Source: Patescibacteria group bacterium (GTDB lineage Bacteria > Patescibacteriota > Patescibacteriia > Magasanikbacterales > GWA2-37-8). Taken from it: a DNA stretch of 64,000 nucleotides. Where the stretch lies: positions 64,001 through 128,000 of the forward strand of contig SCQK01000007.1 in the NCBI GenBank assembly GCA_004321885.1. The letters run 5' to 3'. Below are positions 7,465 through 25,433 of this stretch, one piece after another (position 1 is the first letter of the stretch; the number at the start of each line of letters is the position of its first letter). The notes under the pieces are model-generated. The model was given only the letters and a program-made list of their open reading frames with translations, did no database searches and was not told the DNA's origin. Position numbers and translations under genes: made by a program.

Positions 7465-8262
7465 CTAACCCCTGGCCAAAGTGAGCCAGTAAATTTTTTG
7501 CGCGCCGGCCGCTTTCAGCACGCGCGCGCATTCCTGCATGGTGGCGCCGGTGGTGTAGACATCATCAACCAGCAGAACGTATGCGGGCGCCGGAGCCGGT
7601 CCCTTCCACGCGAACGCGCCGGCCACGTTTTGCGTCCTTTCCTCTTTGCTTAACCTGGCTTGATGAGGAGTGTAGCGGGTGCGAACTAATACCCCCTCCT
7701 CTATCCTCCCCCTAATAGGGGGAGGGTTCTGTGTGAGTCCCTCCCCTTTTAGAGCCTGCCCTGAACTTGTTTCAGGGGGAGGGATACAGGGAGGGGTATT
7801 CAAAGAGTCCAAAAAAATTTTTGCCAACACTTTCGCCTGGTTAAAGCCGCGCTCGCGTTCGCGGCGCGGGTGCAGGGGAACTGGAAGAACTGACCAGCAT
7901 ATTGGCTCCACAGCCCCGACTAAGTCGGGGACTATGGAGCCAGCCACGCTAATTATCGTTCCGACCGAGCAGAGCGAACGGAGGAACCCCTTTTTCTCAC
8001 TTATTATTTTTTCAAAAACATTTTTAATGTCTTTGGCAAAGCCGTATTTGAATTGTTTTATCAGCCTGCCCACGGGCCCGTTTTCTTCATAAACAAAAAA
8101 AGACGCACCTCGGTCCAGGTGCGCGTCCGCGGGCCAAAGCGCGCACTCATTTTGGTGTTTGGCCCGGCAAAGCTTGCACCACCACTCCCCTTCCACGCCG
8201 CAATCCACGCACGAGACCGGGAAAAGAATATCTTTGAACCAGCGCGCGGAGGCGGCCAGCAT
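7465..8262 (-). CDS. comFC: ComF family protein (zinc ribbon + phosphoribosyltransferase fold)
   Basis: N-terminal C-x2-C...C-x2-C; RGFNQA and LLVDDVYTTGATM PRTase motifs; a 35-aa in-frame repeat-encoded insertion (7690-7800). Confidence 0.7.
   Translation of the reverse strand: MLAASARWFKDILFPVSCVDCGVEGEWWCKLCRAKHQNECALWPADAHLDRGASFFVYEENGPVGRLIKQFKYGFAKDIKNVFEKIISEKKGFLRSLCSVGTIISVAGSIVPDLVGAVEPICWSVLPVPLHPRRERERGFNQAKVLAKIFLDSLNTPPCIPPPETSSGQALKGEGLTQNPPPIRGRIEEGVLVRTRYTPHQARLSKEERTQNVAGAFAWKGPAPAPAYVLLVDDVYTTGATMQECARVLKAAGAQKIYWLTLARG
7690..7800. repeat. composite palindromic repeats (GC-hairpin C family + CCCTGAAC..TTCAGGG) in frame within comFC
   Basis: CCCTCC..GGGAGGG hairpins and a copy of the 6391-6440 element. 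Confidence 0.8.
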
Positions 8263-8263
8263 A

Positions 8264-8866
8264 CTATTGCCAGCTCACGGCGCCGACCAGCCACTCATTG
8301 CCGATTTTAAGCAAATTTACTTTATAGGAAACCTGTTTGGAAGACGTGGCGCCCGCTTTTTCCTCTACGCGCGTGGCCTGCAAAGCCACCCCGGCGCTGG
8401 CGCCGTCCCAGTCGCTAAGCGACGAAGCGATGACCTTGGTTGTAACGCCCAAAAATTCCACGGCCGGTTTTGTATTTTTAAGAGGCGCGCTGATTTTTTG
8501 CCACAAAACATCAGTTACCAAATTTTCCAGCTCGCGAATATTGTCATAATTATTGTCGGTGGAATATGTGCCATAGCGCTCCACGAAAATTTTGGCTATC
8601 TGCCTCACCCCGTTTTTTTGCGCTTCCAGCGACGTCGGTTTTTTCACCACCAGCGGCGTGGTGGTGGCCAAGGGATTTTGCACTCCCGCCGGCGTGCCGT
8701 CCGTGTAAGCCGCGGGTAAAACATTTTCAGTTTTGTTTTCTTCGGCCGGCGGCGCTGTCTCCGATTTTTTCTTTCCGGCATACGTTAAAAAAACGCTGAC
8801 ACCGATAATTATGATAACTATCGCTCCGACGAAAATGAAAATTCTGGCGCGTAGAGGCATATACAA
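8264..8866 (-). CDS. membrane-anchored hypothetical protein (T4SS-locus associated)
   Basis: N-terminal TM helix then Ala/Pro/Thr-rich linker; translationally adjacent to the VirB4-like gene. Confidence 0.45.
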   Translation of the reverse strand: MYMPLRARIFIFVGAIVIIIIGVSVFLTYAGKKKSETAPPAEENKTENVLPAAYTDGTPAGVQNPLATTTPLVVKKPTSLEAQKNGVRQIAKIFVERYGTYSTDNNYDNIRELENLVTDVLWQKISAPLKNTKPAVEFLGVTTKVIASSLSDWDGASAGVALQATRVEEKAGATSSKQVSYKVNLLKIGNEWLVGAVSWQ

Positions 8867-8875
8867 AATTTATTA

Positions 8876-10747
8876 TCACTGATTTTCTTTTTCAAATTCT
8901 TTTTTGGCCGCTTCAATGTCCAGCAACTGCTGGGGATTGGTGGTCACAATCTGGTCTTCGGTGTAGGAGGCCACCACTTTAATGGCCGCGTGCTTGTTGC
9001 CGGCGAAAAAAATCCCCTCACCCACAGCGCTTTCCAAAAGCAGATATTTTTCGCCCTCGGTTAAAATAAACACTTTTTGCACCAAATCAATGGCCGCCGG
9101 CGACTGACGCAACAAAAGTTGCAGGGCCGAGTTCGTCACAATCGCCTGACCGTATTGCGAGCGCAAAAAATCATTCACATCCTGCGTGATGGTGGTAACG
9201 CCCAAAAAATATTTGCGGCAGCGCTTGACCAGGGCGAAAATAAAGCGAGCGCTGTCCTCGTGCTGCATCAGCCACCAGGCCTCGTCTATGGCCAGAATCC
9301 TTTTCTTGCGCTCCGAACGCACAACGTTCCAAATATAGTTGACGATGGCGTAAATGGCCAGGGGGCGCAACTCGTCTTCCAAATCGCGCACCGAAAAAAC
9401 CACCAGCTGATTTTTCACGTCCACGTTGGTGGGCGAATTAAACAGACCGCTAAACGTGCCCTCGGTAAATTTTTTCAATTTCAAGACCAGCTCGTTTGAC
9501 CCTTCCATGCCCTCCAAAATTTCCTCCAAATCCTGCATAATGGGCGGCGTCACCTTGGTCAAATCCGCGTCCGGCGTGATATCTTTTTTGGCGTAAGTTT
9601 CTATGAGCGCGCGGTCAATGATGGAATCCTGCTCGGTGGTAAGCCCGCCCAGCATGATGCGCAACAGCCCCTTCACGGTAATGACCGCCCCGCGGATAAT
9701 ATCATCCACGGAAATTTCCTGACCCACGGGCCGCGGCAAATCAAAGGGGTTCACCTTGCTTTCCGAAGATAAAGAAATATTTATATAGGTGCCGCCCACG
9801 GCATCGCACAAATGCTTGTATTCCATTTCCGGGTCAATCACGATAATGTCCGTGCCCATCATCATGGTGCGCAAAATTTCCAGCTTGATGGCATAACTCT
9901 TGCCGGCGCCGGAAGTGGCGAACACCACCATATTGGCGTTTTGCAAAGAAAAGCGGTCAAACAAAATCAGGCTATTGTTGTGTCGGTTGATGCCGTACAA
10001 GATACCGTCATCCGAGGTGAGCTCGGCGGAAATAAACGGAAAACTGGCCGCGATGGGGCTGGAGTTCATGTTGAAAGCGACCGCGATTTCATCGTTGCAT
10101 AAGGGCAGGGTGGAATTAAAACCCTGCTCGGACTGATAAAAAACCTTGCGCGAATAAATGAGCTTGCCGCCAAAAACATTTTCAATGTCTTCGCAGGTCT
10201 GGTCCAGCTCTTCTTTGGTTTTGGCGTAAACCGTAACATAAAACGCAAACTGAAAAAAATGCTCGGTGCCCTGGGTGAGATTGTCGCGCAGTTCTTCTAT
10301 GTCGCGCAGGGCGGTTTCGCGAATCGGGTCGCGCGGCGCGCCTTTTTCCGCGTCGGCGTTTATCTGCGCTTCCAGGGCGCCGACTTTATTGCGCAACTGC
10401 TTCAAAATTATAGCTGACTTGACCGGATAAAAAAACATGCCGATGTCCATGGTCACGGACATATTAAGAATGGGCGAACTCCAGCCCACCGAAATATAGC
10501 GCGGATAGGTGATGACAAAAATGGTGCGGCAAAAAATATCGCCCAGCTTCACGAAGCCGGTCTCCACGTTGAAAGCCGAGGGCGCGATGATGTCCTTAAT
10601 GGAAACCGTGCCCTCGCGATAAGCCCGCTCTTCGGCCAAAATCATGGTCTCGGCCGCGGCTTTCTTTTTTACCGCCTCTTCTTCTTTGCGCAGGCGGCTC
10701 TCGTCGGGCTGGCCGGTTGGTTTTACGATTTTTGGTGCAAAAGCCAT
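8876..10747 (-). CDS. virB4: VirB4/TrbE-like conjugal transfer ATPase (C-terminal ATPase part)
   Basis: Walker A ATSGAGKS; Walker B ILAIDEAWWLM; 623 aa. Confidence 0.8.
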   Translation of the reverse strand: MAFAPKIVKPTGQPDESRLRKEEEAVKKKAAAETMILAEERAYREGTVSIKDIIAPSAFNVETGFVKLGDIFCRTIFVITYPRYISVGWSSPILNMSVTMDIGMFFYPVKSAIILKQLRNKVGALEAQINADAEKGAPRDPIRETALRDIEELRDNLTQGTEHFFQFAFYVTVYAKTKEELDQTCEDIENVFGGKLIYSRKVFYQSEQGFNSTLPLCNDEIAVAFNMNSSPIAASFPFISAELTSDDGILYGINRHNNSLILFDRFSLQNANMVVFATSGAGKSYAIKLEILRTMMMGTDIIVIDPEMEYKHLCDAVGGTYINISLSSESKVNPFDLPRPVGQEISVDDIIRGAVITVKGLLRIMLGGLTTEQDSIIDRALIETYAKKDITPDADLTKVTPPIMQDLEEILEGMEGSNELVLKLKKFTEGTFSGLFNSPTNVDVKNQLVVFSVRDLEDELRPLAIYAIVNYIWNVVRSERKKRILAIDEAWWLMQHEDSARFIFALVKRCRKYFLGVTTITQDVNDFLRSQYGQAIVTNSALQLLLRQSPAAIDLVQKVFILTEGEKYLLLESAVGEGIFFAGNKHAAIKVVASYTEDQIVTTNPQQLLDIEAAKKEFEKENQ

Positions 10748-10752
10748 AGGTA

Positions 10753-11433
10753 TTATTCTACCTGCATCTGATTCGCCGGCGCCAGGTATTGGCTAAACGC
10801 CACGTCCGGATTATACGTTGAATAAAATAATTCTATCAGGGATTGCGTGTCCAGGCGCGCCACTTCCAGGTTCATTGAAGCCAAACCCCCTTCCACCTGG
10901 CGCACGCGCGCGTCTAAATCTTTTTTTCTCTGCAAAAACCGGTCTTCTTTGAGAGTGATGATAGTAGCCGGATTAATCGTCTCCATCGCGCGCGGCCAAA
11001 AGCCGCGTTTTTTGTTAGAAAGCGGGTCGTAGGGCACAATCACGAAAAACTGTTTGCTCATGATTTTGCCGAGCGACACCAGCTCGGTGATAAACGAGCG
11101 GTAATCGGCCGTCTGCGCGCGTAAAAGCTCGTTGCTTTGCTCGCGCTCTTTGGTTAGTAATTTTTCCAGATAGGGCTTGATATATAACTGACGCGATTGC
11201 ACCACCACCTGCAGGGGAAAATCCAGGGAGTTCAAAAAAGAAACATACGACGACACCAGCGCGTTTTGCTCTTCCTCGCTTTTGAGCGCGAAATTAACGC
11301 TGGAAACCATCAGCAGGGCGCGCAGGGTGCCGTCTTTCATGACAACAGTGTCTGATTTGATTTCAGAAAAAGGCAGATGATTCTGCGCGGACGGAATAGC
11401 TCTTTTTTTGGCCAGCGTTTTTTTATTTTGCAT
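10753..11433 (-). CDS. VirB4 N-terminal-domain-like protein (split or frameshifted virB4?)
   Basis: 226 aa ending 5 nt before the ATPase ORF in a different frame; combined length about 850 aa matches Gram-positive VirB4 homologues. Confidence 0.45.
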   Translation of the reverse strand: MQNKKTLAKKRAIPSAQNHLPFSEIKSDTVVMKDGTLRALLMVSSVNFALKSEEEQNALVSSYVSFLNSLDFPLQVVVQSRQLYIKPYLEKLLTKEREQSNELLRAQTADYRSFITELVSLGKIMSKQFFVIVPYDPLSNKKRGFWPRAMETINPATIITLKEDRFLQRKKDLDARVRQVEGGLASMNLEVARLDTQSLIELFYSTYNPDVAFSQYLAPANQMQVE

Positions 11434-11477
11434 ATGTTTTTCCCTCCCCTTGCGAAGGGGAGGGTTAGGGAGGGGTC

Positions 11478-11906
11478 TTACTCGGGTTTGTAATATCCCC
11501 CGGTATTCACAATCAAAGACAAATCCCTGATTCTGTTATACGACAATCGCGGCATGGCCTTGGCCGCTTCTTCTATTTTTTTCTCCGCGTTCGCTTCGCG
11601 CAATTTTTTCAAATCGGCGTTGGAATATTTTTTCTGCCAGATGCGCAGGCTGGGCCGGCGCGCGGTGCCGGCGATATTTAGGATAAAATAATGAAACGGC
11701 TGGCCGTTGATTTTGACAAAAGCGAAGGTCAGCGACAAGCCGCCGAAAAGCGCGGTGAGGAAAATAAACAAAGCCATGTCGGCCAATTTGAAAGACAAAA
11801 ATATCAACAGACTGCCTGCGAGCAAAATGATAAACTGCCTGGTGGTGATGGGCCCAAAAATTTTGTCTTCCACGTCTATGAATTGCGGCACCGTGAATTG
11901 ATCCAT
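11478..11906 (-). CDS. PrgI-family small conjugation membrane protein (VirB3-like)
   Basis: MDQFTVPQFIDVEDKIFGPITTRQF start and two TM helices, characteristic of PrgI/TcpE-like proteins that accompany VirB4. Confidence 0.55.
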   Translation of the reverse strand: MDQFTVPQFIDVEDKIFGPITTRQFIILLAGSLLIFLSFKLADMALFIFLTALFGGLSLTFAFVKINGQPFHYFILNIAGTARRPSLRIWQKKYSNADLKKLREANAEKKIEEAAKAMPRLSYNRIRDLSLIVNTGGYYKPE

Positions 11907-11907
11907 A

Positions 11908-13101
11908 CTATAATTCTTTCTCCATCGCCACTATCGCTTTTATTTCTTCTATCTTTATCCCGCCTTTTTCCGTCGCTGTCTGCGCCAGGGTTTTTCTGTC
12001 GGCCAACGCGCCGCACACCGCGTCCATGTATTCCAAATAAAGAGGGCTCTGTTTCCAGGCGGCCTGCGCGTCCATATATAATAGGTAGGATTCGTCGCGC
12101 AGGTTGATGAATTTTTGTTTCAGGCGCTGGCCCGCCTCGGCGCAGTTTTGCGCCAAACGGCGAAAATCCGTCAGACTAATATATTTTACCTCATCTATGG
12201 GTCCCATTTCAACAGGCGGAGCGGAAATATCCCGCATGCTCTGTTTTACCGGCGCGCTTCCTAACTTGAACGACGAGGATTGTGTAGCCCCCTCCCCTCT
12301 TAGGGAAACCGTCATCTTCCCCTCCCCTTGATAAGGGGAGGGCTCGCCACCACACCAAAATTTTTGGTGTGGTGGCGAGGGAGGGGCAGTCGCAACCGGC
12401 TTCTCTTCAGGCGCCAAAAGCGCGTGCAAAAGCTCGTTGGCTTTTTTCTTGCTCTCGGGCACAGTTGGTCCCCCCCCTCCTTTAGAAGGAGGGGGCAAGG
12501 GGGTGGTCTTGACCTTTTCTGAATGTTCAAACGGGTTAAACGGAGTTGCTGTCGCCGGCAACAATACCTCTTCGCACGCTCCCGCCGCTTTCTCGGCCTG
12601 ATTGGCCGTAAAACCCATGCCACCGTCTTTTATGGAACGCAATAAAATATTTTTCGTTTCTTCGGGCGAGCGCACGTCTTTGAGGCGCAACTGAATAATA
12701 CTGCGCAAGCGATTGATAAAGTTGGGCGGCACTGGAAAATTTATTTTTTTGAGCGCCTGGTCCACCTGGCTTAGGCGCGGCTCGCTCAATTTCGGCGCGT
12801 CGCCCTTGGCCGGCGCCGGCTCTTCCAAAGGCGACCGAAAATCATTATTCGCTTTCTTCGTTCCCATCATCGGCGCCGTGGGATACGGCGGTCGTTTTGG
12901 CGCTACTTTCACTCCCTCCCCTTTTAGGGGAGGGGCAGGGAGTGGGGTATTGTGCGCCGCTTGTCTTACCTGCGACAAAGGCATGCGCACAAAACTGCCG
13001 TCGGCCTTTTTTACCAAAATTGTTGGTTCGTTTGGCATATTATTTACCCCTGCCTCCCTCCCCCTTAAATAAAGGGGGGGACAGGAGGGGGTATTATTCA
13101 C
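11908..13101 (-). CDS. Pro-rich hypothetical protein with four in-frame GC-hairpin repeat insertions
   Basis: the first 20 codons are encoded by a repeat, so the likely true start is MPNEP at about 13038; repeat-encoded segments at 12286-12345, 12470-12500 and 12912-12950. Confidence 0.45.
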   Translation of the reverse strand: MNNTPSCPPLYLRGREAGVNNMPNEPTILVKKADGSFVRMPLSQVRQAAHNTPLPAPPLKGEGVKVAPKRPPYPTAPMMGTKKANNDFRSPLEEPAPAKGDAPKLSEPRLSQVDQALKKINFPVPPNFINRLRSIIQLRLKDVRSPEETKNILLRSIKDGGMGFTANQAEKAAGACEEVLLPATATPFNPFEHSEKVKTTPLPPPSKGGGGPTVPESKKKANELLHALLAPEEKPVATAPPSPPHQKFWCGGEPSPYQGEGKMTVSLRGEGATQSSSFKLGSAPVKQSMRDISAPPVEMGPIDEVKYISLTDFRRLAQNCAEAGQRLKQKFINLRDESYLLYMDAQAAWKQSPLYLEYMDAVCGALADRKTLAQTATEKGGIKIEEIKAIVAMEKEL

Positions 13102-14425
13102 TAACTAATTTTAAGTCTTTCGCCACCTGCGCGGCCAAGGATTCCACGCTGTCAAATTTTTTGGGCAGGCGCAAATAACGTTCGGTGCGCGCTTCTATTT
13201 TTTTTCCATACAAATCGCCCGCAAAATTCAAAACATGAACTTCCAGGCAGTCTTTTTTTGTTAAAGAATTATATCCATAATATAGCAAGCCGGAATACCC
13301 CTTCCCCTGCCCCTCCCCTAAAAGGGGAGGGTGGCTATCGGTGGTTCCTCCCCTTTTTAGGGGGAGGACAAAGGAGGGGGTATTCGCAATGAAAGCGACG
13401 GAGCACGTATACAATCCCCTGGGCAAATTTTTGGCCAGCGCCACGTCCAAGTTGGCCGTGTGAATCCCTACTTTATCCCCTTGTCCATAGCCGGGCAAAA
13501 CCGCGCCGGCCACCACGCGCGAACGGTGTAAAAACACAATTCTGGTTACGGCCGCCGCCAGCGCCGCCGCTCCCAAAATTTGCGTGGCCGATAACGCGTT
13601 GCCATTTAAATAATAATCCAAAATAATGGCGGACACGGGCCAGGACAGCTCGCACAAAGTCGCCACCGAAGCGGTGATTTTTTTCAGGCCGAAATAGTAC
13701 AAAAACATGGCCGCGGCTCCGGATGTAAAAACTATAATGATTAAAGTCGTCCACTGGGCCGCGCCCACCGACGGCAGAGAGGAAAAATAGCGCGCCGCCG
13801 GAATCGCCATAATCAAAACCGTGAGCCCAAAGCGCAAAGCCGCCAGCAGGCCATAGCTGATATTTTTTAGGGAATATTTTCCAAAGGTGGTGGCCGAACC
13901 CCAGGCAAACGCGGCCAGCATGGAAAAACCGGCGGCAATGGGAACAGCCGACATCGCGCTAGAAACCGCGAACGGATTTTTGAAAGTAACAAAATATCCC
14001 GCGACCAGCGCGAGCGGGGCGTAAAAATAAAACGAGCGCGGAAATCGCTCGCGTAAAAATATGGCGGCCAAGATAATCGCGAAAATCGGCTGAAATTTTT
14101 GCAAAAGAATCACTACGGAAATATCTTTGAAGCCCGTGGCAAACAAGGCCTTGGTGATAAAAATCGTGCCCAAAGCCCCGCCAAACAAGGCCACCCAAAA
14201 AATTGCGACCCACTCTTTGCGTTTTATCAGTTTTAACTGGGCGCGGTAAACAACCAAAAACGGCAACAAGGCGACAAAACCGAGCAGGTGCTCCAAAAAC
14301 ACCAGCAAGGCCGGTTGCAAGGAATACAAACGGGGTCGCAAAAAAGTGCCGTCCAAACTCCACAGCAGAGCGGCCAGCGCCACGGCCATTGCCCCGATAA
14401 TCACGCTATTTTTTTTCATAATCAT
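13094..14425 (-). CDS. EamA/DMT-family transporter joined to a riboflavin-kinase-like C-terminal domain
   Basis: 10 TM helices, then GYGQGDKVGIHTANL ... LEVHVLNFAGDLYGKKIEARTERYLRLPKKFDSVESLAAQVAKD resembling the RibF kinase domain; a repeat-encoded insertion at 13305-13385. Confidence 0.5.
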   Translation of the reverse strand: MIMKKNSVIIGAMAVALAALLWSLDGTFLRPRLYSLQPALLVFLEHLLGFVALLPFLVVYRAQLKLIKRKEWVAIFWVALFGGALGTIFITKALFATGFKDISVVILLQKFQPIFAIILAAIFLRERFPRSFYFYAPLALVAGYFVTFKNPFAVSSAMSAVPIAAGFSMLAAFAWGSATTFGKYSLKNISYGLLAALRFGLTVLIMAIPAARYFSSLPSVGAAQWTTLIIIVFTSGAAAMFLYYFGLKKITASVATLCELSWPVSAIILDYYLNGNALSATQILGAAALAAAVTRIVFLHRSRVVAGAVLPGYGQGDKVGIHTANLDVALAKNLPRGLYTCSVAFIANTPSFVLPLKRGGTTDSHPPLLGEGQGKGYSGLLYYGYNSLTKKDCLEVHVLNFAGDLYGKKIEARTERYLRLPKKFDSVESLAAQVAKDLKLVSE

Positions 14426-14480
14426 TTGTCATGCTGAACCACCAGCTGGCGGTTGTTTCAGCATCTTCGCTTTCTTCGTC

Positions 14481-14596
14481 ACCCCACTGTCATTCCGAGC
14501 GGAGCGAGGAATCCCTTATACTACGTTAACAGTTTCTATATCCCCCTTCTTCAAATGCAACACAATCGCCAGCGCCTCGCACAGCCACGAGGCGCG
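14481..14596. repeat. about 115-bp direct repeat, copy 1 (remnant of the 3' end of gene 15271-16254)
   Basis: about 90% identical to 15236-15350; encodes ASWLCEALAIVLHLKKGDIETVNVV* on the minus strand. Confidence 0.8.
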
Positions 14597-14723
14597 TTGT
14601 CTCACACATTAATAATGATTGTGAATAAAAACTGTGGACAAAACGCCTTGACAAAAAACTCTTTTCTTGATATATTAGATTCGGATAGTAACGATGAAAA
14701 GACCCTCGTAAGAAGATACGTGC

Positions 14724-15248
14724 TTACGGGGTGCTTTTTTTATACTCAACTTTATTCCTCAAATCACTAACAAAACTAATTTTGCCGCCGGCCACTTTCC
14801 GCAATAAGTACGAGCAACTGGACGGCGCGGGCGCGATCAAGTGGCAAAACTTATTTTGTTTTCGCAAATAGTCAACTAAACAATGAAAATCACCATCGCC
14901 GCTGACAATTACGGCCTGATCATAATTCTGATATTCTATCATCGTGTGTAAAACCAATTCGGCGTCACAATTCCCTTTTACTTCACCGTCTTTCAATATT
15001 AGAGTTGGTTTAAATATCAAAATGTAACCAACCTCCTGAAGAAATTTATACAACTCCTCATTGCCAAATAAAAAACCAATGAACATAAACGCCTTCGCGA
15101 CGCTATATTTGTCTTTCAAATACCTGCGAAAACGAAAATAATCCAGCTTCCAACCAATGCGCTGCATACTGAAATATAGATTCTGACTGTCTATAAACGC
15201 GAAATTGTTTTCTTTCATACTTCGTTTCCCTCCCCGCCCCACTGTCAT
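14724..15248 (-). CDS. NYN/LabA-like domain protein (predicted RNase)
   Basis: FIDSQNLY...KGNCDAELV...SGDGDF motifs. Confidence 0.65.
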   Translation of the reverse strand: MTVGRGGKRSMKENNFAFIDSQNLYFSMQRIGWKLDYFRFRRYLKDKYSVAKAFMFIGFLFGNEELYKFLQEVGYILIFKPTLILKDGEVKGNCDAELVLHTMIEYQNYDQAVIVSGDGDFHCLVDYLRKQNKFCHLIAPAPSSCSYLLRKVAGGKISFVSDLRNKVEYKKSTP

Positions 15249-15350
15249 TCTGAGCGGAGCGAGGAATCCCTTACACTACGTTAACAGTTTCTATATCCCC
15301 TTTTTTCAAATGCAACACTATCGCCAGCGCCTCGCGCAGCCAAGAGGCAT
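15236..15350. repeat. about 115-bp direct repeat, copy 2 (authentic 3' end of gene 15271-16254)
   Basis: see copy 1. Confidence 0.8.
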
Positions 15351-16254
15351 AAGCCTCGCGCTCCTCTTGTCCGCGATAAATATTCTGCAAGAATTTTTCC
15401 GCCTCCAAAATTGCCGTGTCCTGATTGTAGCCACGGCCGGAAAAATCTTTGAGCAAAACCGATAATTTTCTGCTTTCATCTCCGGCATCGCTCGTCGGCA
15501 CGCTCTCGTTGCTTTGCTCCAACGATTGTATGATGTTCCGGCTCATGGCGTCAAAATCCGCGTCGCTCTTGCCGCCCAAAAATTCCCCCAGATAAAATCG
15601 CGCCGGCACGCCGGTCACGATGGCGCTATAAAAATAATTCTGCAATAAAAATTGTCTTTCATTCGCGCCAAACTGGCCAAACATCTTCCACACCGCCTGC
15701 AAGAGCATGGAAAAAATAAAAGCGTCATCCCAAAAATATTGTTTTTTAATATCTTCTGATTTCGAAACAGCGGGTAGTGTGCGCACAAACATTTCGCCGA
15801 TTTCTTTATCCGCGCCATTTCGCAAAAAATCCCCGAGCGTCGCCACAAAAACCAAATCATTATAAAATCCGCCTTCGCCTTTCAAAATAATTTTCAATTC
15901 TTCTTTTTCGTATGGCTTGACGCCAGCGCCCAAACCCAGAGCCGCTGAAATAAACGATAGCTGTAGCGCCAATGCGCCGGCGATTTCGCTATCGTCTGGC
16001 TTATCCATAAATTCGGCGACCAATTCGGAATCCAAAAACAAAATTATTTCTTTTTCAATCACGTCCATTGCTCCGGATAACTCTTCCTTAGTCGCTCGCG
16101 CGCCAATTTGCGAAGCGTAATCAAACATTTTCTCGTTTGCGCCCTTGGCAATCAAATCCGCTTTGGCTTTTTCCAATTCCAAAAACGCCTCGCGAACATC
16201 CTGCCACGAACACCTTCTAAACTCGCATACTTTGCGCCTGCCGAGGGTGAACAT
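15271..16254 (-). CDS. hypothetical protein (T4SS-locus)
   Basis: 327 aa, acidic, no motif recognised. Confidence 0.5.
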   Translation of the reverse strand: MFTLGRRKVCEFRRCSWQDVREAFLELEKAKADLIAKGANEKMFDYASQIGARATKEELSGAMDVIEKEIILFLDSELVAEFMDKPDDSEIAGALALQLSFISAALGLGAGVKPYEKEELKIILKGEGGFYNDLVFVATLGDFLRNGADKEIGEMFVRTLPAVSKSEDIKKQYFWDDAFIFSMLLQAVWKMFGQFGANERQFLLQNYFYSAIVTGVPARFYLGEFLGGKSDADFDAMSRNIIQSLEQSNESVPTSDAGDESRKLSVLLKDFSGRGYNQDTAILEAEKFLQNIYRGQEEREAYASWLREALAIVLHLKKGDIETVNVV

Positions 16255-16263
16255 AAAGCAATT

Positions 16264-16578
16264 TTATTCCTCTCCTTCGTCAGATTTATCAAAAAAATTT
16301 TCAACCAACTCTGACAAATCAAGACGCCTTCTTTCTTCTGCACTCTTTTTATTAAATTCTAAAACAGAATGCAAATCTTGTTGTTGCCTTGATGTCAAAT
16401 TTCGACTCTCCAGTTCTTTAACGACCAGTTCCGTCGGCGCCTTCAAATTATCATATATGTATCTTTCATTACTATTCGGGGCTACACGCGCGCATAACAT
16501 TCTAAAAACATCCTTAGTTGTATTTTTTTTGAGCTCTGATTTAAAATACCCTTCATTTTCTTTTGTATCGATAGTCAT
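16264..16578 (-). CDS. hypothetical protein
   Basis: 104 aa; tightly packed in the operon. Confidence 0.4.
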   Translation of the reverse strand: MTIDTKENEGYFKSELKKNTTKDVFRMLCARVAPNSNERYIYDNLKAPTELVVKELESRNLTSRQQQDLHSVLEFNKKSAEERRRLDLSELVENFFDKSDEGEE

Positions 16579-16600
16579 AATTATTTTTCATCTATAACTT

Positions 16601-17794
16601 TCAAGCAAGTGGTTGCGCGAAATTACTAAAAATAAAATCTTTCTTCTTTTCGTCAAAATATAATAATGGCTCTCCGGATTTATAATAATCCATATAAATA
16701 TCATTCACTTGCAGCAAATTTGAAAATAAAGGTTCGCTGTGGTAATCCGTTCCGTCCAATTTAATAACGGATTTAATGTAGGCCGCCGCCTGTTCGGCTG
16801 ACACCTTCGCGAACCATTTCTTTAAATTCCGCGTGTCTTCATCCGTAAGGGGAACATGCAAAATGGCATACGTTATGTCCGCAGTCAGATTTGATTTTGT
16901 TATATCAATGTTATTTATGTCAATCCCAATAATGCTTCCGTTCATTATATGCAAATATAACTTCAAGATAATTCCGATTATCAGGCCGTCCGCTTCGCTG
17001 GTCAAATTAAAATATTTATCATTACTCAAAAAATCTAAAAGTTGCATTTCGTTCAAATCCGACTGTGCAAAATTAACAAAGATGGTAATCCAAAAATGAA
17101 TCGTATATAAATCCATTTCATTCTGCGGACCGATTATTGTCTGATTGTCCAACAGAAAACCAGCTAATTCCAAACTGCGTTTGGTTCGAACATCAAACAA
17201 ACTGGAGTCGCTCTTAAGCATGTCCGCCAAAATCGCTTCAATATCAAACCCGATTTCAATCGCCAAGACGATCAAACTGCTATGTAAAAAATAATCTTGT
17301 TCCGTAGAATTAAGCCGGCCAAAAAAATAACAGCATAAAACGACATAAATCCGCCGCAAGAACGCGGCCAGTTCCGCATCTATTCCTTCAAAAAATAACC
17401 CGGCTGCGGAATTTTTTGCCAGCTGGCGTAATAAAATCAAAACCTCATTCTGCTTGCCGAAATTTATCGCTACATAAACCGTGCGAATTAATTTATCGCG
17501 CTGAAGCGAATCCTTCGTGTCGGTCGGTTTGAATTTTTTTATTTCTTCCAATGTCAATTCACCGACCGCGGGATTTCGGCCGCGCATTGTTTTTACCAGA
17601 TTTTCACAATCGCCAAAATTTTCCTTTTTCGTCGTGGAGGTCAGCGGATAAAACTGATACGCCAAAGCTTCTTCCCAGGGAAGTAAATCAAAACCTTTGA
17701 TTAGTTGCTCAAATTCGCTCTTGTCTTTCGCTGAAATATTAAGCAAACTAACAAAGGAAGACAGCGTAAAATTTTCTCTGACAATTTTAGCCAT
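16601..17794 (-). CDS. hypothetical protein
   Basis: 397 aa; no motif recognised. Confidence 0.5.
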   Translation of the reverse strand: MAKIVRENFTLSSFVSLLNISAKDKSEFEQLIKGFDLLPWEEALAYQFYPLTSTTKKENFGDCENLVKTMRGRNPAVGELTLEEIKKFKPTDTKDSLQRDKLIRTVYVAINFGKQNEVLILLRQLAKNSAAGLFFEGIDAELAAFLRRIYVVLCCYFFGRLNSTEQDYFLHSSLIVLAIEIGFDIEAILADMLKSDSSLFDVRTKRSLELAGFLLDNQTIIGPQNEMDLYTIHFWITIFVNFAQSDLNEMQLLDFLSNDKYFNLTSEADGLIIGIILKLYLHIMNGSIIGIDINNIDITKSNLTADITYAILHVPLTDEDTRNLKKWFAKVSAEQAAAYIKSVIKLDGTDYHSEPLFSNLLQVNDIYMDYYKSGEPLLYFDEKKKDFIFSNFAQPLA

Positions 17795-17801
17795 AAATTA
17801 A

Positions 17802-19649
17802 TTATTTTCTCTTTCGCGATTTCGGCTTTTTAGGAGGCGTTTGAACTTTAATATTATCTAACAATTGCCTCTTGGCTTCCGCGGAAAATAATTTTAACAT
17901 CTTAATAATTGCACCAATGCCCTCCGGCGGGCTCAATTGCGATACGCGCAGTATTAAACTGTCGTCGGCCTTGCCCAATAATTTTTCCAGGTATTCTTCC
18001 AAAACATAACGCTGGTTGTCTATGGTAATTTCCCCGGCCACTCCTTTTTCAAAATAAATCTCGGCCGCTTGCGCCGCATCATCGCCGAATAGCTTATTGA
18101 ATAGCCCGGTAAAATTTGTTAGCAGCTCATGGGATAAACTTTTAATTTCTTCTTCGCCTGCCTGTTCCTCGCCTTCTTCTCCCTCCTCCAACGCCTCTCT
18201 GGCCTGCTCCTCATCAGTGGCGCCCTTATGTTCCACCATGGCCGCCGCGTCCTTAATATCTCCCATTTTTACCCTCGCGTTTAAATAGGCGACGAGCTCT
18301 TTAATGTTATAAAAATATTGTTCTTCCACCGGAAAGCCTTCTCTTTCTTTTTTCAAATTCCTGCATCTTATCTTTAAGCATATTTTTTTATTCCCCCAGT
18401 CAAATCTCTCGTTGATCGCTTCGCCAGCAGTGAAAAAATCAGTGCCAGCGGCCTTGGCCAAGCACATCAGCCAATCGCGCGGATTATTGTATAAAAAAGG
18501 CGCGATAATATCCGTAAATATTTTATCATCGGCTTCATCCTGCTCAAGACCATAGCCCCTTATATCTCTTAAGGCTTCGTCATACGTGCTGTGCAGGCCT
18601 TGATAAATCTGACCGCGACGATTATTTCCAATGTCAATGATACGATAATCTTCTTTCGGGCCGTTTGTCCCGTCTTCCTTCGGCCTTTCCAATTTTTGCG
18701 TATAAACGACAAAATTTTCCTTTGGCCCCAGGGCCACGGCCGCGTTCTGAGTGCGGGCGAGGGTTCTCTCATGCTGTCTTTCGTTGGAAATATTTTTCCT
18801 GTGCATTTGCAATAATGGCAATTCAAATTCCACCGTGGTGCCGGTATATTCGTTAAATTTCCCTATCTCGTGCACGTGGCCTTCGGCCAAAAATGGAATG
18901 CCTTTTTTTCTAAGATCGGTCCGAGCATCATTTTTGGACATGGTCTCGCAAACCGGCAGCCATAAAAATTCAGCCGCTCCGTTCACCTTGGTTTCTCCGC
19001 TGGCAAGAAATAACGTATGCGAAGCATTTTCAATGTGGTGCTTATCCAAAGCGCTATCGCGCAAGCCGCCAATGTACTGAAAGCCAATCTGATTTGCCCT
19101 GATTTTATCCAGATACCCCTGTGTATCAAAATCAACCAAAGTGTCAAGCGGACATTTTTCGCGCAGGTCAATCGGCCCTTTTTTTGATTGCACGACGAGC
19201 TCTTCACCGTTAAAATATTTTTCTATTAGCGTCTGGTCGTTAATCTTGTTCAGTCCAAGCATTCTATTCATTTCTCTTATGCACGCAAGCTGGGCCAATT
19301 GGCGCAGGTCTGCTTTTAGCTTTTTGCCCGCGACCTCAATCTTTACCGTCATTTCAGCTTTGTCGGCAATGCCTTGATATATATCCGCGGGGTTGTAGCC
19401 GCCGCGCCAGATTTCGTTCGCTTCTAAAAAGTCGCGCATGCGATGGTGCTCCACCAAAAAATCCGAATCATAGCCGGTCATTGATAATAATTCAACATCA
19501 GCCACTTTCGCCGTATCCGAGGTGGCGTTTTTCCAGCCTATTTTTTCGCCCAACTTATGATAAATATGGTCCATGATGGAACCGGTTTTCCCTTCCGATG
19601 CCGGGCGCTGTTTTTTTTCAACTTCTGGGTTATGTATTTCGCTAGCCAT
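17802..19649 (-). CDS. hypothetical protein with acidic C-terminal tail
   Basis: 615 aa; EGHVHE His cluster; Glu-rich tail; no confident domain call. Confidence 0.5.
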   Translation of the reverse strand: MASEIHNPEVEKKQRPASEGKTGSIMDHIYHKLGEKIGWKNATSDTAKVADVELLSMTGYDSDFLVEHHRMRDFLEANEIWRGGYNPADIYQGIADKAEMTVKIEVAGKKLKADLRQLAQLACIREMNRMLGLNKINDQTLIEKYFNGEELVVQSKKGPIDLREKCPLDTLVDFDTQGYLDKIRANQIGFQYIGGLRDSALDKHHIENASHTLFLASGETKVNGAAEFLWLPVCETMSKNDARTDLRKKGIPFLAEGHVHEIGKFNEYTGTTVEFELPLLQMHRKNISNERQHERTLARTQNAAVALGPKENFVVYTQKLERPKEDGTNGPKEDYRIIDIGNNRRGQIYQGLHSTYDEALRDIRGYGLEQDEADDKIFTDIIAPFLYNNPRDWLMCLAKAAGTDFFTAGEAINERFDWGNKKICLKIRCRNLKKEREGFPVEEQYFYNIKELVAYLNARVKMGDIKDAAAMVEHKGATDEEQAREALEEGEEGEEQAGEEEIKSLSHELLTNFTGLFNKLFGDDAAQAAEIYFEKGVAGEITIDNQRYVLEEYLEKLLGKADDSLILRVSQLSPPEGIGAIIKMLKLFSAEAKRQLLDNIKVQTPPKKPKSRKRK

Positions 19650-19650
19650 A

Positions 19651-22600
19651 TTATGTTAATTTTTTCAATTGTTCGCTGTCCAATCCTCTAATTAGCTTGA
19701 ATAGCTCCTGAATGTTCTTGATTCCCTGATCCCTTAGCCCCTGATCGTTTTGGGCGTTATTACGGTGCTGAAGTTCAATTTTACTGGACTCCGTCACATT
19801 AAATTCTTTAATATGCCTGACCGCCTCGGCCCCAAGATTATATTTTTGCAAGAAACCTTTAATGGCGGCGGCTTGTTCGTTATTAAGCAACGTAGCGCTG
19901 GCCCGCATTGTTTTGCGCACGCTTTCAATTACTTGTTGCGCTTCTCCACCAAAAGTAGTAGCGACTTCCTGCGCCAGCATATTCATTGTGGCGTCATCAA
20001 TCCAACTTTGTTCAAATAAGCCTTTCAAAATTGTCTGGGCCACCATTTTATCTTCCCAGGTCTGCTTGCCTTTCCCTTTAAGTGTAACATGGTTCATATG
20101 CCCGCGATGCGCCTGGAGCAACTGGTCGTAATTCATGTCCTTGAAATTCTTGAAAAATCCTTCCACCACGGCTTCTTCGGCGGCGGTGTTTGGCACATCA
20201 ATGCCCATATTGCCCCAAATATTCGCTTGCCCGGCCTTAGAAATCATGTCCTGGCGCGTGCCGCGATACAAAGTGTATTGATGATCGCGCAAGGCCAGCT
20301 GATGAGCCGCGTAAAGAGCGGGGTTGGCCGCGCCAGCTTTTCCCCAAACCGCGCTTAATTGTCCGCGCGACTGGGTGAGCGATCCCGACAAAGACTTGCC
20401 GATTTCTTCGACATTAGCCGCCGATCCGGCTTGCCGGAGCTGGCCCAATATTTGCTGTAATACATTGATTTCGGTTTTGGCTAAAAAATTTTCATCCATT
20501 TGCTGTTTGCCAAAAAGGACCTTAAAATTATTTTCAAGAGCGGTACCTTTCGTTGAACTAAGAAATGCTTGCGCGGCTGTTGCGTCAATTTTGCCGCCGA
20601 CTTTAATTTTTTCCATTGCCTTTGTCAGAGTTTCCAAACTCGCGGCCAATTCCTGTATTTTTTGTTGATTGGCGCCGCCGCTAAAAATACCGGCCGCGCT
20701 TTCCATCCCCTTCAATTTATTTTCATCAGCTTCTATTTCAGATTCTAAATTTCCAATCTCGTCAGCCAGCCTAACCCCTCTTTCAGTTTCATCGTCCGTC
20801 GGATTCGCTTTATTATTCAATACACCATACTCTCTTTTCATTTCTTCTAATGCACTCTTTTTAGAATCCAGACCAGTTCTCATTCCTTCAGCTTTTTCCC
20901 CGGCCGCCAACGCGGAAGCCACGCCCTGCAAAGATTGAATTCGCGTTTCGATGGGAGCCGATTCCGCTTCCAGCTTTCCCTTCCCTTTTTCATTTAACGC
21001 GCTTTGCGCGGCCAAAAGATTCTTCTCCTCTTCCGAACTTAATCCTTCTTGTTCAGACTTACTGCGCGCCAAGGCGCTAACATATTGTTCGCCCTGACTG
21101 GTATTTATCAGCCCGCCCCTAACGCTCGCTTCAATAAATTTAATCAGCTCCTCGGCAATTTGCCCGCCCAGTTCGCCCATTTTTTTAGCTTCCACTGTGT
21201 GCCGAAATCTTTGGAAAAACGCCGCCCTATTTCTCTTCGCTCCCATTTCTTCCAACCCGATTTCCGCCTCGGCCCGCGCTTTATGCGCCTGAATTTGTTC
21301 GCTGACTGTTCCCAAACCATATTTGTCTTTTTCACCAATTTGGAATTCGCCGTTCTTAAATCGCGCATTGCCTTTCACCGCGCGGCGGCCGTATGCCTTG
21401 TATTCGGTGGTTTTTTCTTCCGAACGCGCTTGTTCTGCCTCAAGCATGCCCTTTTCTATGCGATCCAACGCGTTAATGGACGGCCCTTCAAAGGCCTGAA
21501 ATAAATATTTTGGATCGGCGCTGATTCTTTTGTCCATCAATTCTTCGCGCACCTTGGCGAACTCCTGCACTCTCTTCAATTGTTTCCGGCTGCGCAAAAG
21601 CTTTTCGTGCCTCCCATGGAAGAAACGCTGAAACGGACCGCGACCCTCGTCAACGACCTGCTCTGTGTACCATTCATCCCCCTCTCGCACAAGCTTCGCG
21701 CCTTTTTTAATATCGGCCGCGGCCGCTTTTTTCGCCTCCTCTTCTGTCGCCACGGCTACTCCGCTTTTGTCGGTAATAAGATTTTTTTTCTTCTTAAAAT
21801 CATACTTCATCTGCGTTATCGCCTTACCATTCTCATCATATAATTTTCCGCTCTCATCGGCTGTTACACGAGCATTTTGTTCATCTTCGGTCAAAGCGTC
21901 TTTAGAATCTACTATTTTATTATTCTCGTCACGCTTAACTTTATGCCATGCTTTGCTTTTTTCGTCATATTCCATCTTATAACCCATCAATTCTTCATTT
22001 CTGGACAACCTGGATTTAATGTTCAATTCTTCCTCCTTCGTTTCCAACCGCGGCCCGCCGGCACGCCAGGCTCGCCAGCCCTCCACAATTGACCTTTGCA
22101 AATCGCCTTTGATTCTTTCAACTCTATTAGCCAATAAACCCTGATACAATCCTTTTCCTGTTAATTTTGCCAAACCAATCCCCGCTTTCTTAGCCCCCTC
22201 AACCCCCTTTTTCGCCGCCCAGCGCGCCGCGGTGTACCCGCTCGCCACCGCCGCCACCTTCTTGCCGAAGTCCGTCACTTTGCCCATCATGGCCCCGCCG
22301 GTTACGCCCAGCGCCTGGGTCACTTTCGCCCCAATCAAAAGCATGCCAATGGCAATGGCGAAGTTGGCCATGGCCGGCCATGTCATTGCCGCCGTAATTC
22401 CGGCGCTCTGGCCGCCAACTTTAATGTTTGACGCGCCCGCTGATTCAATGCCCTCATCGGTAATTTGAACCGGAACCGAATTATTGCTGGGGTCAGCTAT
22501 CTCTTTGCTTACTGTCCCGGACCCCACCACGGCAAAAGACAACCAAAGAAAAAACGCCAAAATCGGCCCGACAATCACGTGATTGCCAAACTCGGTCCAC

Positions 22601-23415
22601 CACTGGCTGGCGTATTTTTGCGTTTGCGGTATGACATTCAAAACAAAAGCCAAAGGGGATAAAATGATAAGCACCCAAAGCACAATCATACGCGCCAAAA
22701 GAATCACCAGATAAACACCCATGGTCACCATAGCCATCCCCGCAAAAGCGACTGCGGCAACCGAAGCCATAAATATGCCGGACATCTTGTAATTCTCCGG
22801 TTGCGTGCCGCCGGCAAATCTTTGTATATCATTAAAATTGAAGGCGTTTATAAGATTGCCGCCGGCCGTGGCCGCCACGCCATTGATAAAAGTTATCATC
22901 ACCACCTGGGCCAGGTCTATAATCAACCCGGCAATGGTGCGGCTGAAATTTACAAGTATCGCGGCAAACAATAATTTCACCAGTAATTTTTTGTATTCAT
23001 ATTGCTCTATGCCCAAAATTGTGCCAAAGGCGATAACGAGCAGGATAATTACAAAAAACATGTTGGTAACATCGCGCACCAACACCCACCCAGTAGTTAC
23101 CGCCGTTGAATCTATAAATCCATTGTATCCCCCAATTTGAATGGTAAAACGCAGAATGAAAATTGTAATCTTCATGAACAACGCCGCCATCCACATGGTA
23201 AAAGTAGTGCCGGCGCTCATTATGGCATCAAAAAATCCATCAGCCTGCGCCACTTCGGCGCCCATCACCCACATCAACAAAACAGTCGTGGCCACCATCA
23301 CAAACGAAACCATGCCCAACTTCCTGCTGGGTTTCAAAAATCGCAAAACAGCGCTCGCGGCCGCGCGCGCTTTTACGCAAACTTTACTCGCCTTTTTCCA
23401 AAGGGAGACAAGCAT
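19651..23415 (-). CDS. VirB6/TrbL-like polytopic membrane protein with a roughly 900-aa charged coiled-coil C-terminal extension
   Basis: about 380-aa N-terminal multi-TM domain, then a Lys/Glu-rich low-complexity region; context with VirB4 and PrgI. Confidence 0.55.
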   Translation of the reverse strand: MLVSLWKKASKVCVKARAAASAVLRFLKPSRKLGMVSFVMVATTVLLMWVMGAEVAQADGFFDAIMSAGTTFTMWMAALFMKITIFILRFTIQIGGYNGFIDSTAVTTGWVLVRDVTNMFFVIILLVIAFGTILGIEQYEYKKLLVKLLFAAILVNFSRTIAGLIIDLAQVVMITFINGVAATAGGNLINAFNFNDIQRFAGGTQPENYKMSGIFMASVAAVAFAGMAMVTMGVYLVILLARMIVLWVLIILSPLAFVLNVIPQTQKYASQWWTEFGNHVIVGPILAFFLWLSFAVVGSGTVSKEIADPSNNSVPVQITDEGIESAGASNIKVGGQSAGITAAMTWPAMANFAIAIGMLLIGAKVTQALGVTGGAMMGKVTDFGKKVAAVASGYTAARWAAKKGVEGAKKAGIGLAKLTGKGLYQGLLANRVERIKGDLQRSIVEGWRAWRAGGPRLETKEEELNIKSRLSRNEELMGYKMEYDEKSKAWHKVKRDENNKIVDSKDALTEDEQNARVTADESGKLYDENGKAITQMKYDFKKKKNLITDKSGVAVATEEEAKKAAAADIKKGAKLVREGDEWYTEQVVDEGRGPFQRFFHGRHEKLLRSRKQLKRVQEFAKVREELMDKRISADPKYLFQAFEGPSINALDRIEKGMLEAEQARSEEKTTEYKAYGRRAVKGNARFKNGEFQIGEKDKYGLGTVSEQIQAHKARAEAEIGLEEMGAKRNRAAFFQRFRHTVEAKKMGELGGQIAEELIKFIEASVRGGLINTSQGEQYVSALARSKSEQEGLSSEEEKNLLAAQSALNEKGKGKLEAESAPIETRIQSLQGVASALAAGEKAEGMRTGLDSKKSALEEMKREYGVLNNKANPTDDETERGVRLADEIGNLESEIEADENKLKGMESAAGIFSGGANQQKIQELAASLETLTKAMEKIKVGGKIDATAAQAFLSSTKGTALENNFKVLFGKQQMDENFLAKTEINVLQQILGQLRQAGSAANVEEIGKSLSGSLTQSRGQLSAVWGKAGAANPALYAAHQLALRDHQYTLYRGTRQDMISKAGQANIWGNMGIDVPNTAAEEAVVEGFFKNFKDMNYDQLLQAHRGHMNHVTLKGKGKQTWEDKMVAQTILKGLFEQSWIDDATMNMLAQEVATTFGGEAQQVIESVRKTMRASATLLNNEQAAAIKGFLQKYNLGAEAVRHIKEFNVTESSKIELQHRNNAQNDQGLRDQGIKNIQELFKLIRGLDSEQLKKLT

Positions 23416-23428: not shown

Positions 23429-23791
23429 TTATGCGACTATATTATACCACAAAAAAAGCTCCGTAACAACGAAGCTGGGGATAAAAATACACGGGAAGCA
23501 GCCCGAGAGCTGAATGGGAGACGAGCCGTCGTTCCAGTCAATCTTTACATCTCGTATGGGCATCTGGTTCATGTCGGCATAAGCGTAAAATTTGAGGGTA
23601 ACGCGGGAGGGAGAGACGGGTATTGTTACGTCAGCGCTGGTTTTGTCGTTGATGGTGAGGCCTTCGGCGCCCTCAAAACAGATGCCGTTCCGGCAATTTA
23701 CCGCATCCAAGCTGTATACATTGTTTAATTTGGCAAACAAATAATTCAAATCGTTAAACAACCCTTTTTCCACCTGGCACTGGCTTTGCAC
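23429..23791 (-). pseudogene. orphan fragment of the giant-protein 3' region
   Basis: 120 aa; 23520-23700 is about 95% identical at nucleotide level to 27040-27240 and about 85% to 29285-29450. Confidence 0.6.
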
Positions 23792-23885: not shown

Positions 23886-24284
23886 ATGACTGATTTAGCC
23901 AGGCAACTGGAATTTTGGCTTTCGTCGGCCTCAAAAAATTGGCAGACCGCACTTTCTCTGTATAAATTAGGCCATTATGACATGTGCTTATTTTGCTGTC
24001 ATTTGACTTTAGAGAAAAAACTTAAAGCTATTATTGTCTACCTATTGAAAAAAGTACCACCGCCGATTCACGATTTAAATCGTTTAGCGCAAATCGCGGG
24101 GTTAAATGTTTCTCTCACACAACAAGAACAGCTTAATGAAATAACGAAATTTAATATCCAAGCCCGTTACGATGATATAAAATTGGCTTTTTACAAAAAA
24201 GCTACCAAATTATTCGCAAAAAAATATTTGGAAATAACACAAGAATTAATTTTATGGCTGGAAAAAAAATCGGGCGAGAAGTAA
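23886..24284 (+). CDS. HEPN-domain protein (TA-like partner of MNT)
   Basis: 132 aa alpha-helical; overlaps the downstream nucleotidyltransferase by 31 nt. Confidence 0.55.
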   Translation: MTDLARQLEFWLSSASKNWQTALSLYKLGHYDMCLFCCHLTLEKKLKAIIVYLLKKVPPPIHDLNRLAQIAGLNVSLTQQEQLNEITKFNIQARYDDIKLAFYKKATKLFAKKYLEITQELILWLEKKSGEK

Positions 24285-25327: not shown

Positions 25328-25356
25328 TTGACAAAAGGGTGTTTTTGTGTTATGTT
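25328..25356 (+). promoter_or_regulatory. sigma70-like promoter of the lipoprotein module
   Basis: TTGACA-17nt-TATGTT; mirrored at 28574-28602 on the minus strand. Confidence 0.45.
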
Positions 25357-25433
25357 GTATGGTTCTTTCACAAAGTGCTAAGTAGGCCAGTATATGGCCT
25401 GGTTAGCCACAAAAGAAGGTTTGGGTAAAGAGT

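Follow-up and report, generated by a model that had tools for sequence, protein, structure and literature searches.

The few Patescibacteria that can be cultivated depend on type IV secretion systems (T4SSs) for their epibiotic life. The T4SSs of the phylum were catalogued in 2025 (Quinonero-Coronel et al., Microb Genom; PMC12102498), with a TrsD gene next to VirB4 as the most frequent component. VirB8 is seldom detectable in that survey and is found mostly in the class ABY1, whose T4SS loci carry comF, recG, and radA; relaxases are for the most part lacking. TrsD and VirB4 are listed there as essential in Southlakia. PMC12857230, which summarises Wang et al. 2023, describes the T4SS of Southlakia epibionticum as essential for epibiotic growth and the loss of comEC as leaving viability unaffected. 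The locus compared here with these systems lies on the minus strand at 7465-23415 of a 64,000-nt stretch of contig SCQK01000007.1 (GCA_004321885.1), hereafter the window.

The locus is very probably a chromosomal, vertically inherited, monoderm-type (MPF-FATA-like) T4SS of Ca. Magasanikbacteria (class ABY1), in both identity and anatomy. A first-pass annotation had described it as T4SS/competence-like and had placed such systems in bacteria of the candidate phyla radiation; VirB3, TrsD, VirB4, VirB6, and VirB8 counterparts are now identified beside comFC. It is an ordinary member of a known system, not a new kind of system, and both a TrsD-like gene beside virB4 and a nearby comF have been reported (PMC12102498). 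The window supplies a parts list for the Magasanikbacteria/ABY1 version. The list includes TrsD and VirB4 as a stable two-gene ATPase, a VirB8 homologue supported by a structure model, a VirB6 extension whose last module is fused in some relatives and separate in others, and two more soluble families that are conserved. What novelty remains is in the accessory families, chiefly the 615-aa module attached to VirB6.

Related loci and gene order

The VirB4 protein was used as query against one genome per GTDB species, and at least 554 relatives were confirmed. Counts out of 80 refer to the best 80 of these, which are 71-83% identical and comprise Ca. Magasanikbacteria and other Patescibacteria. 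The window proteins were compared with the 80 related loci (numbered L001 onwards) by tblastn, and rough gene calls were made in the loci. The canonical order is a large secreted protein, a VirB6-like protein of 850-1900 aa, one or two genes encoding 310-500 aa, the conserved soluble protein 397a, PrgI, the 226-aa TrsD-like protein, VirB4, the 200-aa VirB8-like protein, and ComFC. The order from the VirB6-like gene to ComFC is seen in 60-80 of the 80 species, and this clustering is well beyond chance. The synteny comparison proposed in the first-pass annotation thus gives a conserved locus.

The minus-strand gene run from 23415 to 7465 was verified by open reading frame (ORF) listing and translation. 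The ten ORFs named in the first-pass annotation are all present at the positions given there, but two amendments are needed. The short gaps of 0-22 nt hold inside two sub-blocks, but not overall, as a 298-nt gap follows the NYN-domain gene and a 44-nt gap separates the 226-aa gene from the PrgI gene. The chain from PrgI to the 327-aa protein is also not unbroken, since 397a, an EamA/riboflavin kinase (RibK) gene, and the NYN-domain gene, all three missing from that annotation, lie between them.

The two-gene VirB4 ATPase

The 623-aa protein covers profile positions 178-730 of 752 of the CD1110-family VirB4 (362 bits, cut-off 325) and also matches Pfam P-loop_TraG (3e-28). Its residues 245-601 align with the VirB4 C-terminal domain of 4AG5 (2.7e-50), and its translation shows Walker A (GAGKS) and Walker B (DEAW) motifs. 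The preceding 226-aa protein matches TrsD/TraD (NF041427) below the curated cut-off, VirB4_plasma at positions 91-233 (8e-8), and the CD1110 VirB4 at positions 2-95 (2e-5). These matches suggest that the pair corresponds to TrsD and VirB4 of pGO1-type systems.

The split of VirB4 is a genuine, conserved two-gene arrangement, because all 80 loci are interrupted at the same homologous residue, in three frames, with variable spacers and a conserved stop and start. The two ORFs are separate in 80/80 loci, and the alignment of the TrsD-like gene nearly always reaches homologous residue 226. In the window they lie in different frames with a 5-nt gap, and the junction reads ...Q V E TAA tacct ATG GCT TTT. 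The relative frame among the 80 loci is 0, 1, or 2, the spacer is 1-484 nt, and the TAA stop and MAF(K)P start are kept despite the differing spacers. One locus (L078, 195-6912) has 6.7 kb between the two genes, a spacing that shows that physical separation of the VirB4 halves is tolerated.

A frameshift pseudogene and an assembly or sequencing error had been listed beside the two-gene option in the first-pass annotation, and a 5-nt separation with a change of frame is what one indel could give. Both now have practically no chance of being correct. The 80 independently assembled relatives stop at homologous residue 226 and open a fresh ATG, the frames and spacers vary as described, and both genes are strongly conserved (47-78% identity for the TrsD-like protein, 71-83% for VirB4). 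The N-terminal gene also matches the stand-alone TrsD/TraD family, and the arrangement with TrsD beside VirB4 is already published (PMC12102498).

VirB3 and the extended VirB6

The 142-aa protein is a VirB3 homologue and scores 32.6 bits against Pfam PrgI (cut-off 27). The 1254-aa protein has about 7-8 predicted transmembrane (TM) helices in residues 1-361 (Kyte-Doolittle scan), followed by about 890 hydrophilic, largely coiled-coil-like residues. Its conservation is limited to the N-terminal ~400 aa. Among 44 orthologous N-terminal regions (30-56% identical), 13 match Pfam TrbL/VirB6 (best 2e-5), the sole Pfam family matched by more than one orthologue. These matches bear out the earlier VirB6/TrbL-like label and argue for an extended VirB6. 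The extension has no detectable similarity to Pfam families or solved structures.

The 615-aa protein is a module of this VirB6, because long relatives join a VirB6 N-terminus to the 615 core. Its gene stands alone directly after the VirB6-like gene in four loci (L002, L010, L015, L050), and alone in two more (L011, L013), whose contigs break off before a VirB6 gene is reached; in L032 and L042 the region makes up the C-terminus of the VirB6-like protein. When 1.84 billion representatives were searched in full with HMMER, 97 relatives were obtained in all, of which 31 are proteins of 1250-2100 aa with the 615 core near the C-terminus. The N-termini of these long forms match that of the window VirB6 with E-values from 1e-42 to 1e-125 (≤1e-81 for 30 of the 31), and the segment just before their 615 core can be aligned to the C-terminus of the 1254-aa protein. 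By these alignments, the 615-aa gene is a fission product of the VirB6 extension, or the long forms are fusions.

The 615-aa protein has the conserved motifs HxENA, GHxHE, EAxD..TD..AP, and DW. Its invariant or near-invariant polar residues, including H204, E206, D244, K247, E260, E266, R298, D374, D379, and D391, suggest a functional site. The protein is confidently modelled and matches no Pfam family or solved fold. A bolder and quite improbable proposal is that the 615-aa protein, or C-terminal VirB6 module, is an undescribed lineage-restricted domain whose polar residues form a catalytic or a metal/nucleotide-binding site, for instance of a hydrolase at the channel with transported or host-derived macromolecules as its substrates. 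In the same proposal, the soluble X1, X2, and 397a may be its lineage-specific cytoplasmic partners and take the place of the missing coupling protein.

The VirB8 homologue

The 200-aa protein, called a membrane protein in the first-pass annotation, is by its modelled fold a bitopic VirB8 homologue with an NTF2-like domain. One N-terminal TM helix is predicted in 68/68 members of its family, and the gene directly follows virB4 in most loci. Structure prediction, which had been proposed for this protein, was run with AlphaFold2 on 61 homologues and gives a VirB8-like fold with a mean predicted local distance difference test (pLDDT) score of 84. The model consists of a TM helix (residues 4-29), a disordered linker (30-75), and an alpha+beta cone (78-198), in which most 10-residue blocks are at pLDDT >90. 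The long linker and a sequence identity of 7-19% distinguish the protein from VirB8, DotI, TraM, PrgL, and TcpC. The window protein has no Pfam VirB8 match. Family members give scattered weak Pfam matches to SnoaL_4, VirB8, TcpC, and other NTF2-like families, the weak VirB8 matches coming from 2 of 69 members.

The comFC gene

ComFC is a competence protein that handles single-stranded DNA. The window protein matches NCBIfam comF and GntX (2.4e-17), both below the cut-offs, and Pfam Pribosyltran (1e-5). Its gene follows the VirB8-like gene at a gap of 1 nt, and it directly follows that gene in 67/80 loci, so that the neighbourhood has the comF of the ABY1 loci. ComFC alone of ComEC, ComEA, ComFA, and ComFC was found in the window. 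A metallo-beta-lactamase-fold protein is encoded elsewhere in the window, at 49397-50290.

Soluble accessory families

The first 397-aa protein (X1) and the 327-aa protein (X2) are, by profile searches, distant paralogues of one locus-specific soluble family, X. Iterative hidden Markov models (HMMs) seeded with either protein end in one common set of ~56 genes in 50/80 loci, all of them located between the VirB6-like gene and 397a. An HMM built from the direct X1 hits recovers the window X2 at 7.5e-5, and both proteins hit one relative (L024) directly. The order X1 then X2 recurs in L012, L017, L029, and L043. X2 has 16 direct phmmer matches in relatives and is without the C-terminal YFDE..F.W motif of the longer members. 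No strong TM segment is predicted in 50/56 members. The family is probably helical, and its sole outside similarity is to designed PPR proteins (weak matches, E ~1e-3), taken as 'helical repeat-like' only. There is no Pfam consensus across its members, and a profile from the 56-sequence alignment returned 7 proteins from a set of 5.8 billion searched with a word prefilter. A match of the X profile to the TrsD-like protein (E 3e-4, 15-sequence search) was judged insignificant.

The second 397-aa protein, 397a, lies directly upstream of PrgI in 75/80 loci. It has a central domain and a conserved C-terminal region of ~100 aa, and TM segments are predicted in 0/76 members. Its true start is probably M22 (13038). 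Orthologues of 500-630 aa (L061, L063, L065, L080, L054, L060, and others) contain the central ~100-aa domain (RL..L...RLKD.R...GGLGL) twice. The long proteins in loci without X were considered as X-397a fusions; this was rejected, as the central 397a domain is duplicated instead. No Pfam or PDB match was obtained for 397a.

The 104-aa ORF has zero tblastn, phmmer, or HMM matches in the 80 related loci and gives only weak PHROG/Pfam noise; it is possibly not a conserved component. Searches of X, 397a, the 615-aa protein, and the 104-aa ORF against Pfam, PHROGs, NCBIfam, and PDB sequences gave nothing consistent, singly or family-wide. The first-pass annotation had proposed its four uncharacterised proteins as VirB8, VirB2, or lytic-enzyme analogues. 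That proposal is replaced here: the 615-aa protein is a VirB6 module, the 397-aa (X1) and 327-aa proteins soluble paralogues, and the 104-aa ORF an orphan, and the VirB8 role passes to the 200-aa protein. The broader suggestion that they are lineage-specific companions of the system fits the 615-aa protein, X1, and X2, and is not supported for the 104-aa ORF, which is found in none of the 80 relatives.

Comparison with described systems

The locus resembles the other Patescibacteria T4SSs in being chromosomal, in having a VirB4 of MPF-FATA ancestry with an adjacent TrsD-like gene, a PrgI-type VirB3, a VirB6, and a nearby comF, and in lacking a relaxase. Like theirs, its VirB8 is hard to detect by sequence, and detection is mainly in ABY1. 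In contrast, it has no VirB2-like pilin array or VirB1-like hydrolase beside virB4, where pilins are frequent but not universal. Its VirB6 is extended, with the last module as a separate 615-aa gene; the two X paralogues and 397a are not named components of the other systems, and the NYN and EamA/RibK insertions are found here.

The Gram-positive conjugation systems of the pGO1/pSK41 type (TrsC-TrsD-TrsE) likewise have VirB3-like, TrsD-like, and VirB4 proteins as separate genes in the same order, with TrsD homologous to the VirB4 N-terminus. However, pGO1 is plasmid-borne and conjugative, with a relaxase, a type IV coupling protein (T4CP; TrsK), a VirB1-like TrsG, and a topoisomerase, none of which were found in the window, and the window VirB4 has its highest score against the CD1110/CTn2 subclass and not against pGO1. 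Extended VirB6 proteins such as RvhB6 of Rickettsiales (PMC12857230) share the polytopic core followed by a large hydrophilic extension. The extension of the present lineage differs in being fused in some members and divided between two genes in others.

Chromosomal descent or integrated element

Vertical descent is indicated, because the gene order and the flanking genes are conserved across dozens of species; the flanking genes are comFC and that for a 563-aa membrane protein. The remainder of the window is chromosomal housekeeping (KsgA, Sua5, RF-1, GroEL, YidC, NusA, LeuRS, IF-2, and RNase Y), together with a 2728-aa surface protein and mobile debris. No relaxase or VirD4/TcpA coupling protein is present among the window proteins scanned with Pfam and NCBIfam, and the locus is thus not read as a conjugation machine.

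An integrative conjugative element (ICE) for the mobilisation of DNA into other cells would accord with a VirB4 closest to CD1110/ICE-type conjugation ATPases and with the G+C content, which falls from ~0.50-0.53 at 8-14 kb to 0.385-0.48 at 14-24 kb. It would also accord with a large serine recombinase (Resolvase, Recombinase, and zinc ribbon) at 4164-5672 on the minus strand, 1.8 kb beyond comFC. The recombinase is near the locus in just 2/80 relatives and probably belongs to an unrelated mobile element. With the housekeeping neighbours, the conserved order and flanks, and the lack of a relaxase and coupling protein, which has its parallel in the literature (PMC12102498), the locus is very unlikely to be part of an ICE.

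Proposed function

For the chromosomal T4SS preferred here, the membrane core would consist of the extended VirB6 with its 615-aa module, VirB3/PrgI, the two-gene VirB4, and the bitopic VirB8, with comFC tightly coupled and X1, X2, and 397a as soluble lineage-specific proteins that travel with the core. From established T4SS biology, the TrsD/VirB4 ATPase, with VirB4 as hexamers, would dock on VirB3 and VirB6 at the cytoplasmic membrane, VirB8 would scaffold the channel through the wall, and ATP hydrolysis would power the transfer of macromolecules to or from the host cell. The identities of the components, the genuine split, the synteny, the fission of VirB6 and the 615-aa protein, the paralogy within X, and the insertions come from the sequence comparisons; assembly, transport direction, and cargo are inferred. 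Nucleic acid is the most likely cargo, because the comFC link is tight and conserved; the reading of cargo and direction as a whole stays tentative, somewhat short of an even chance.

Several points weigh against this interpretation. The 1254-aa window protein itself has zero Pfam matches and is called VirB6 via its orthologues, and neither TrsD nor ComF reaches its curated NCBIfam cut-off. A VirB2-like pilin was looked for and not found, with zero pilin-like Pfam matches and no small secreted ORF with two TM segments in the locus or its flanks, in searches of limited sensitivity. The window also yielded no VirB1-like hydrolase or T4CP, although the rest of the genome may contain such genes. 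Transcription of the operon in this genome could be broken by the 298-nt gap and the two insertions. A DNA-uptake role is not established for the phylum, because comEC is dispensable and the T4SS essential in Southlakia (Saccharibacteria).

The last contrast, drawn from PMC12857230, would suit an effector- or pilus-based apparatus for attack on the host that has no nucleic-acid role, with comFC as a mere neighbour and with X1, X2, 397a, and the 615-aa protein as secreted effectors or pilus-tip factors. Tubular T4SS-like structures have been seen at the parasite-host interface, and X, 397a, and the 615-aa protein are soluble, lineage-specific, and fast-evolving (13-18% mean column identity), like many effectors. 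The missing VirB2-like pilin counts against this apparatus too. In 31 relatives the 615-aa protein and VirB6 form one polypeptide, as would be expected of a machine part more than of cargo, and comFC lies 1 nt from its neighbour and is co-located in 67/80 loci. Such an apparatus is therefore considered rather unlikely, though a serious rival, and the T4SS with nucleic acid as the favoured cargo is retained as the working reading.

Features of the locus and later insertions

Table 1. Genes and other features of the locus, with tblastn presence in the 80 related loci
Feature	Position	Strand	Evidence	Related loci
Extended VirB6/TrbL-like protein (predicted), 1254 aa	19651-23415	-	TrbL matches of orthologues and TM scan	56/80 (N-terminal ~400 aa)
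Soluble protein, 615 aa, detached C-terminal module of the extended VirB6	17802-19649	-	relatives with the fused form	9/80
X1, 397 aa, locus-specific soluble family X	16601-17794	-	iterative HMM	4/80
Highly charged orphan ORF, 104 aa	16264-16578	-	zero relatives in 80 loci	0/80
X2, 327 aa, family X paralogue	15271-16254	-	phmmer/HMM	10/80
NYN-domain gene, 174 aa	14724-15248	-	Pfam NYN 3e-14	1/80
Non-coding gap, 298 nt	14426-14723
EamA transporter and riboflavin kinase fusion (EamA/RibK), 443 aa	13094-14425	-	Pfam EamA 1e-27, Flavokinase 2e-19	1/80 (weak, partial)
397a, second 397-aa ORF, conserved soluble T4SS-associated protein	11908-13101	-	in 75/80 loci	75/80
VirB3 homologue (PrgI family), 142 aa, two TM helices	11478-11906	-	Pfam PrgI 1.2e-7	76/80
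TrsD-like protein, 226 aa, N-terminal VirB4 domain as its own gene	10753-11433	-	NCBIfam TrsD/TraD 1.2e-7	80/80
VirB4 ATPase, 623 aa, middle and C-terminal P-loop domains	8876-10747	-	NCBIfam CD1110-family VirB4 5e-108	80/80
VirB8 homologue, 200 aa: N-terminal TM helix, disordered linker, NTF2-like domain	8264-8866	-		60/80 (68 by HMM)
ComFC/ComF-family protein, 265 aa, two in-frame palindromic-repeat insertions	7465-8262	-	NCBIfam comF 1.2e-21	67/80

The NYN and EamA/RibK genes are later insertions in a variable spot between X and 397a and not parts of the T4SS, because each occurs in 1/80 loci and a 129-nt repeat lies beside NYN. The first-pass annotation had held that matches of the uncharacterised proteins to unrelated housekeeping families, or a lack of conservation in relatives, would speak against its reading. 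The two genes do interrupt the locus, so the first of these points is partly borne out, but the locus itself is conserved. The direct repeat (90% identical; 14465-14593 and 15220-15348) lies on both sides of the NYN gene and is a second copy of the final ~26 codons of X2 together with a palindromic element; it has the look of a footprint of the insertion of a NYN cassette. The 443-aa fusion of EamA and riboflavin kinase has an unusual architecture and is a candidate flavin uptake-and-trapping protein; related genomes do not have it at this position. A scan of the locus for promoters and terminators was uninformative apart from a single promoter-like site at 23469-23441, upstream of the VirB6 gene, which is a consensus match only.

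Region upstream of the VirB6 gene

Immediately upstream of the VirB6 gene, a 120-aa ORF (23429-23791) repeats part of a 461-aa gene (26457-27842) in truncated form, with 93% DNA identity, and the 461-aa gene in turn resembles the 3' end of the gene for the 2728-aa giant protein. The features described here also take in 28699-29445. Inverted repeats of ~400 nt (25328-25741 and 28180-28602, up to 96%) enclose a stretch that contains a fragment of an IS1595-type zinc-ribbon transposase. A homologous protein, up to 850-1500 aa in length where complete, is encoded directly upstream of VirB6 in relatives (21 loci). The giant surface protein may have been the original VirB6 neighbour, and it could be an adhesin of the system. 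Two small overlapping ORFs (132 and 112 aa) inserted between the giant gene and the T4SS, at 23886-24592 on the plus strand, by eye resemble a HEPN/minimal nucleotidyltransferase toxin-antitoxin pair.

Palindromic repeats

Short G+C-rich palindromic repeats of several families are scattered in the window (AATACCCC..CCCTCCCCTAAAAGGGGAGGG, TGTCATTCCCCCGACTAAGTCGGGGGAATCCAG, and TGTCATTCCGAGCGGAGCGAGGAATCCCTT). Within genes, they are present in comFC (7688-7727 and 7897-7944), 397a (12914-12951), the riboflavin-kinase domain (13294-13384), and the 563-aa ORF on the plus strand (6863-6897). Intergenic copies lie at 11439-11476, 14488-14522, and 15243-15277, and many more occur at 37-59 kb. Alignment with relatives shows that the in-frame palindromes add inserts of 22-29 aa to ComFC and the riboflavin kinase domain with the frame intact. 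In this they resemble the Rickettsia palindromic elements.

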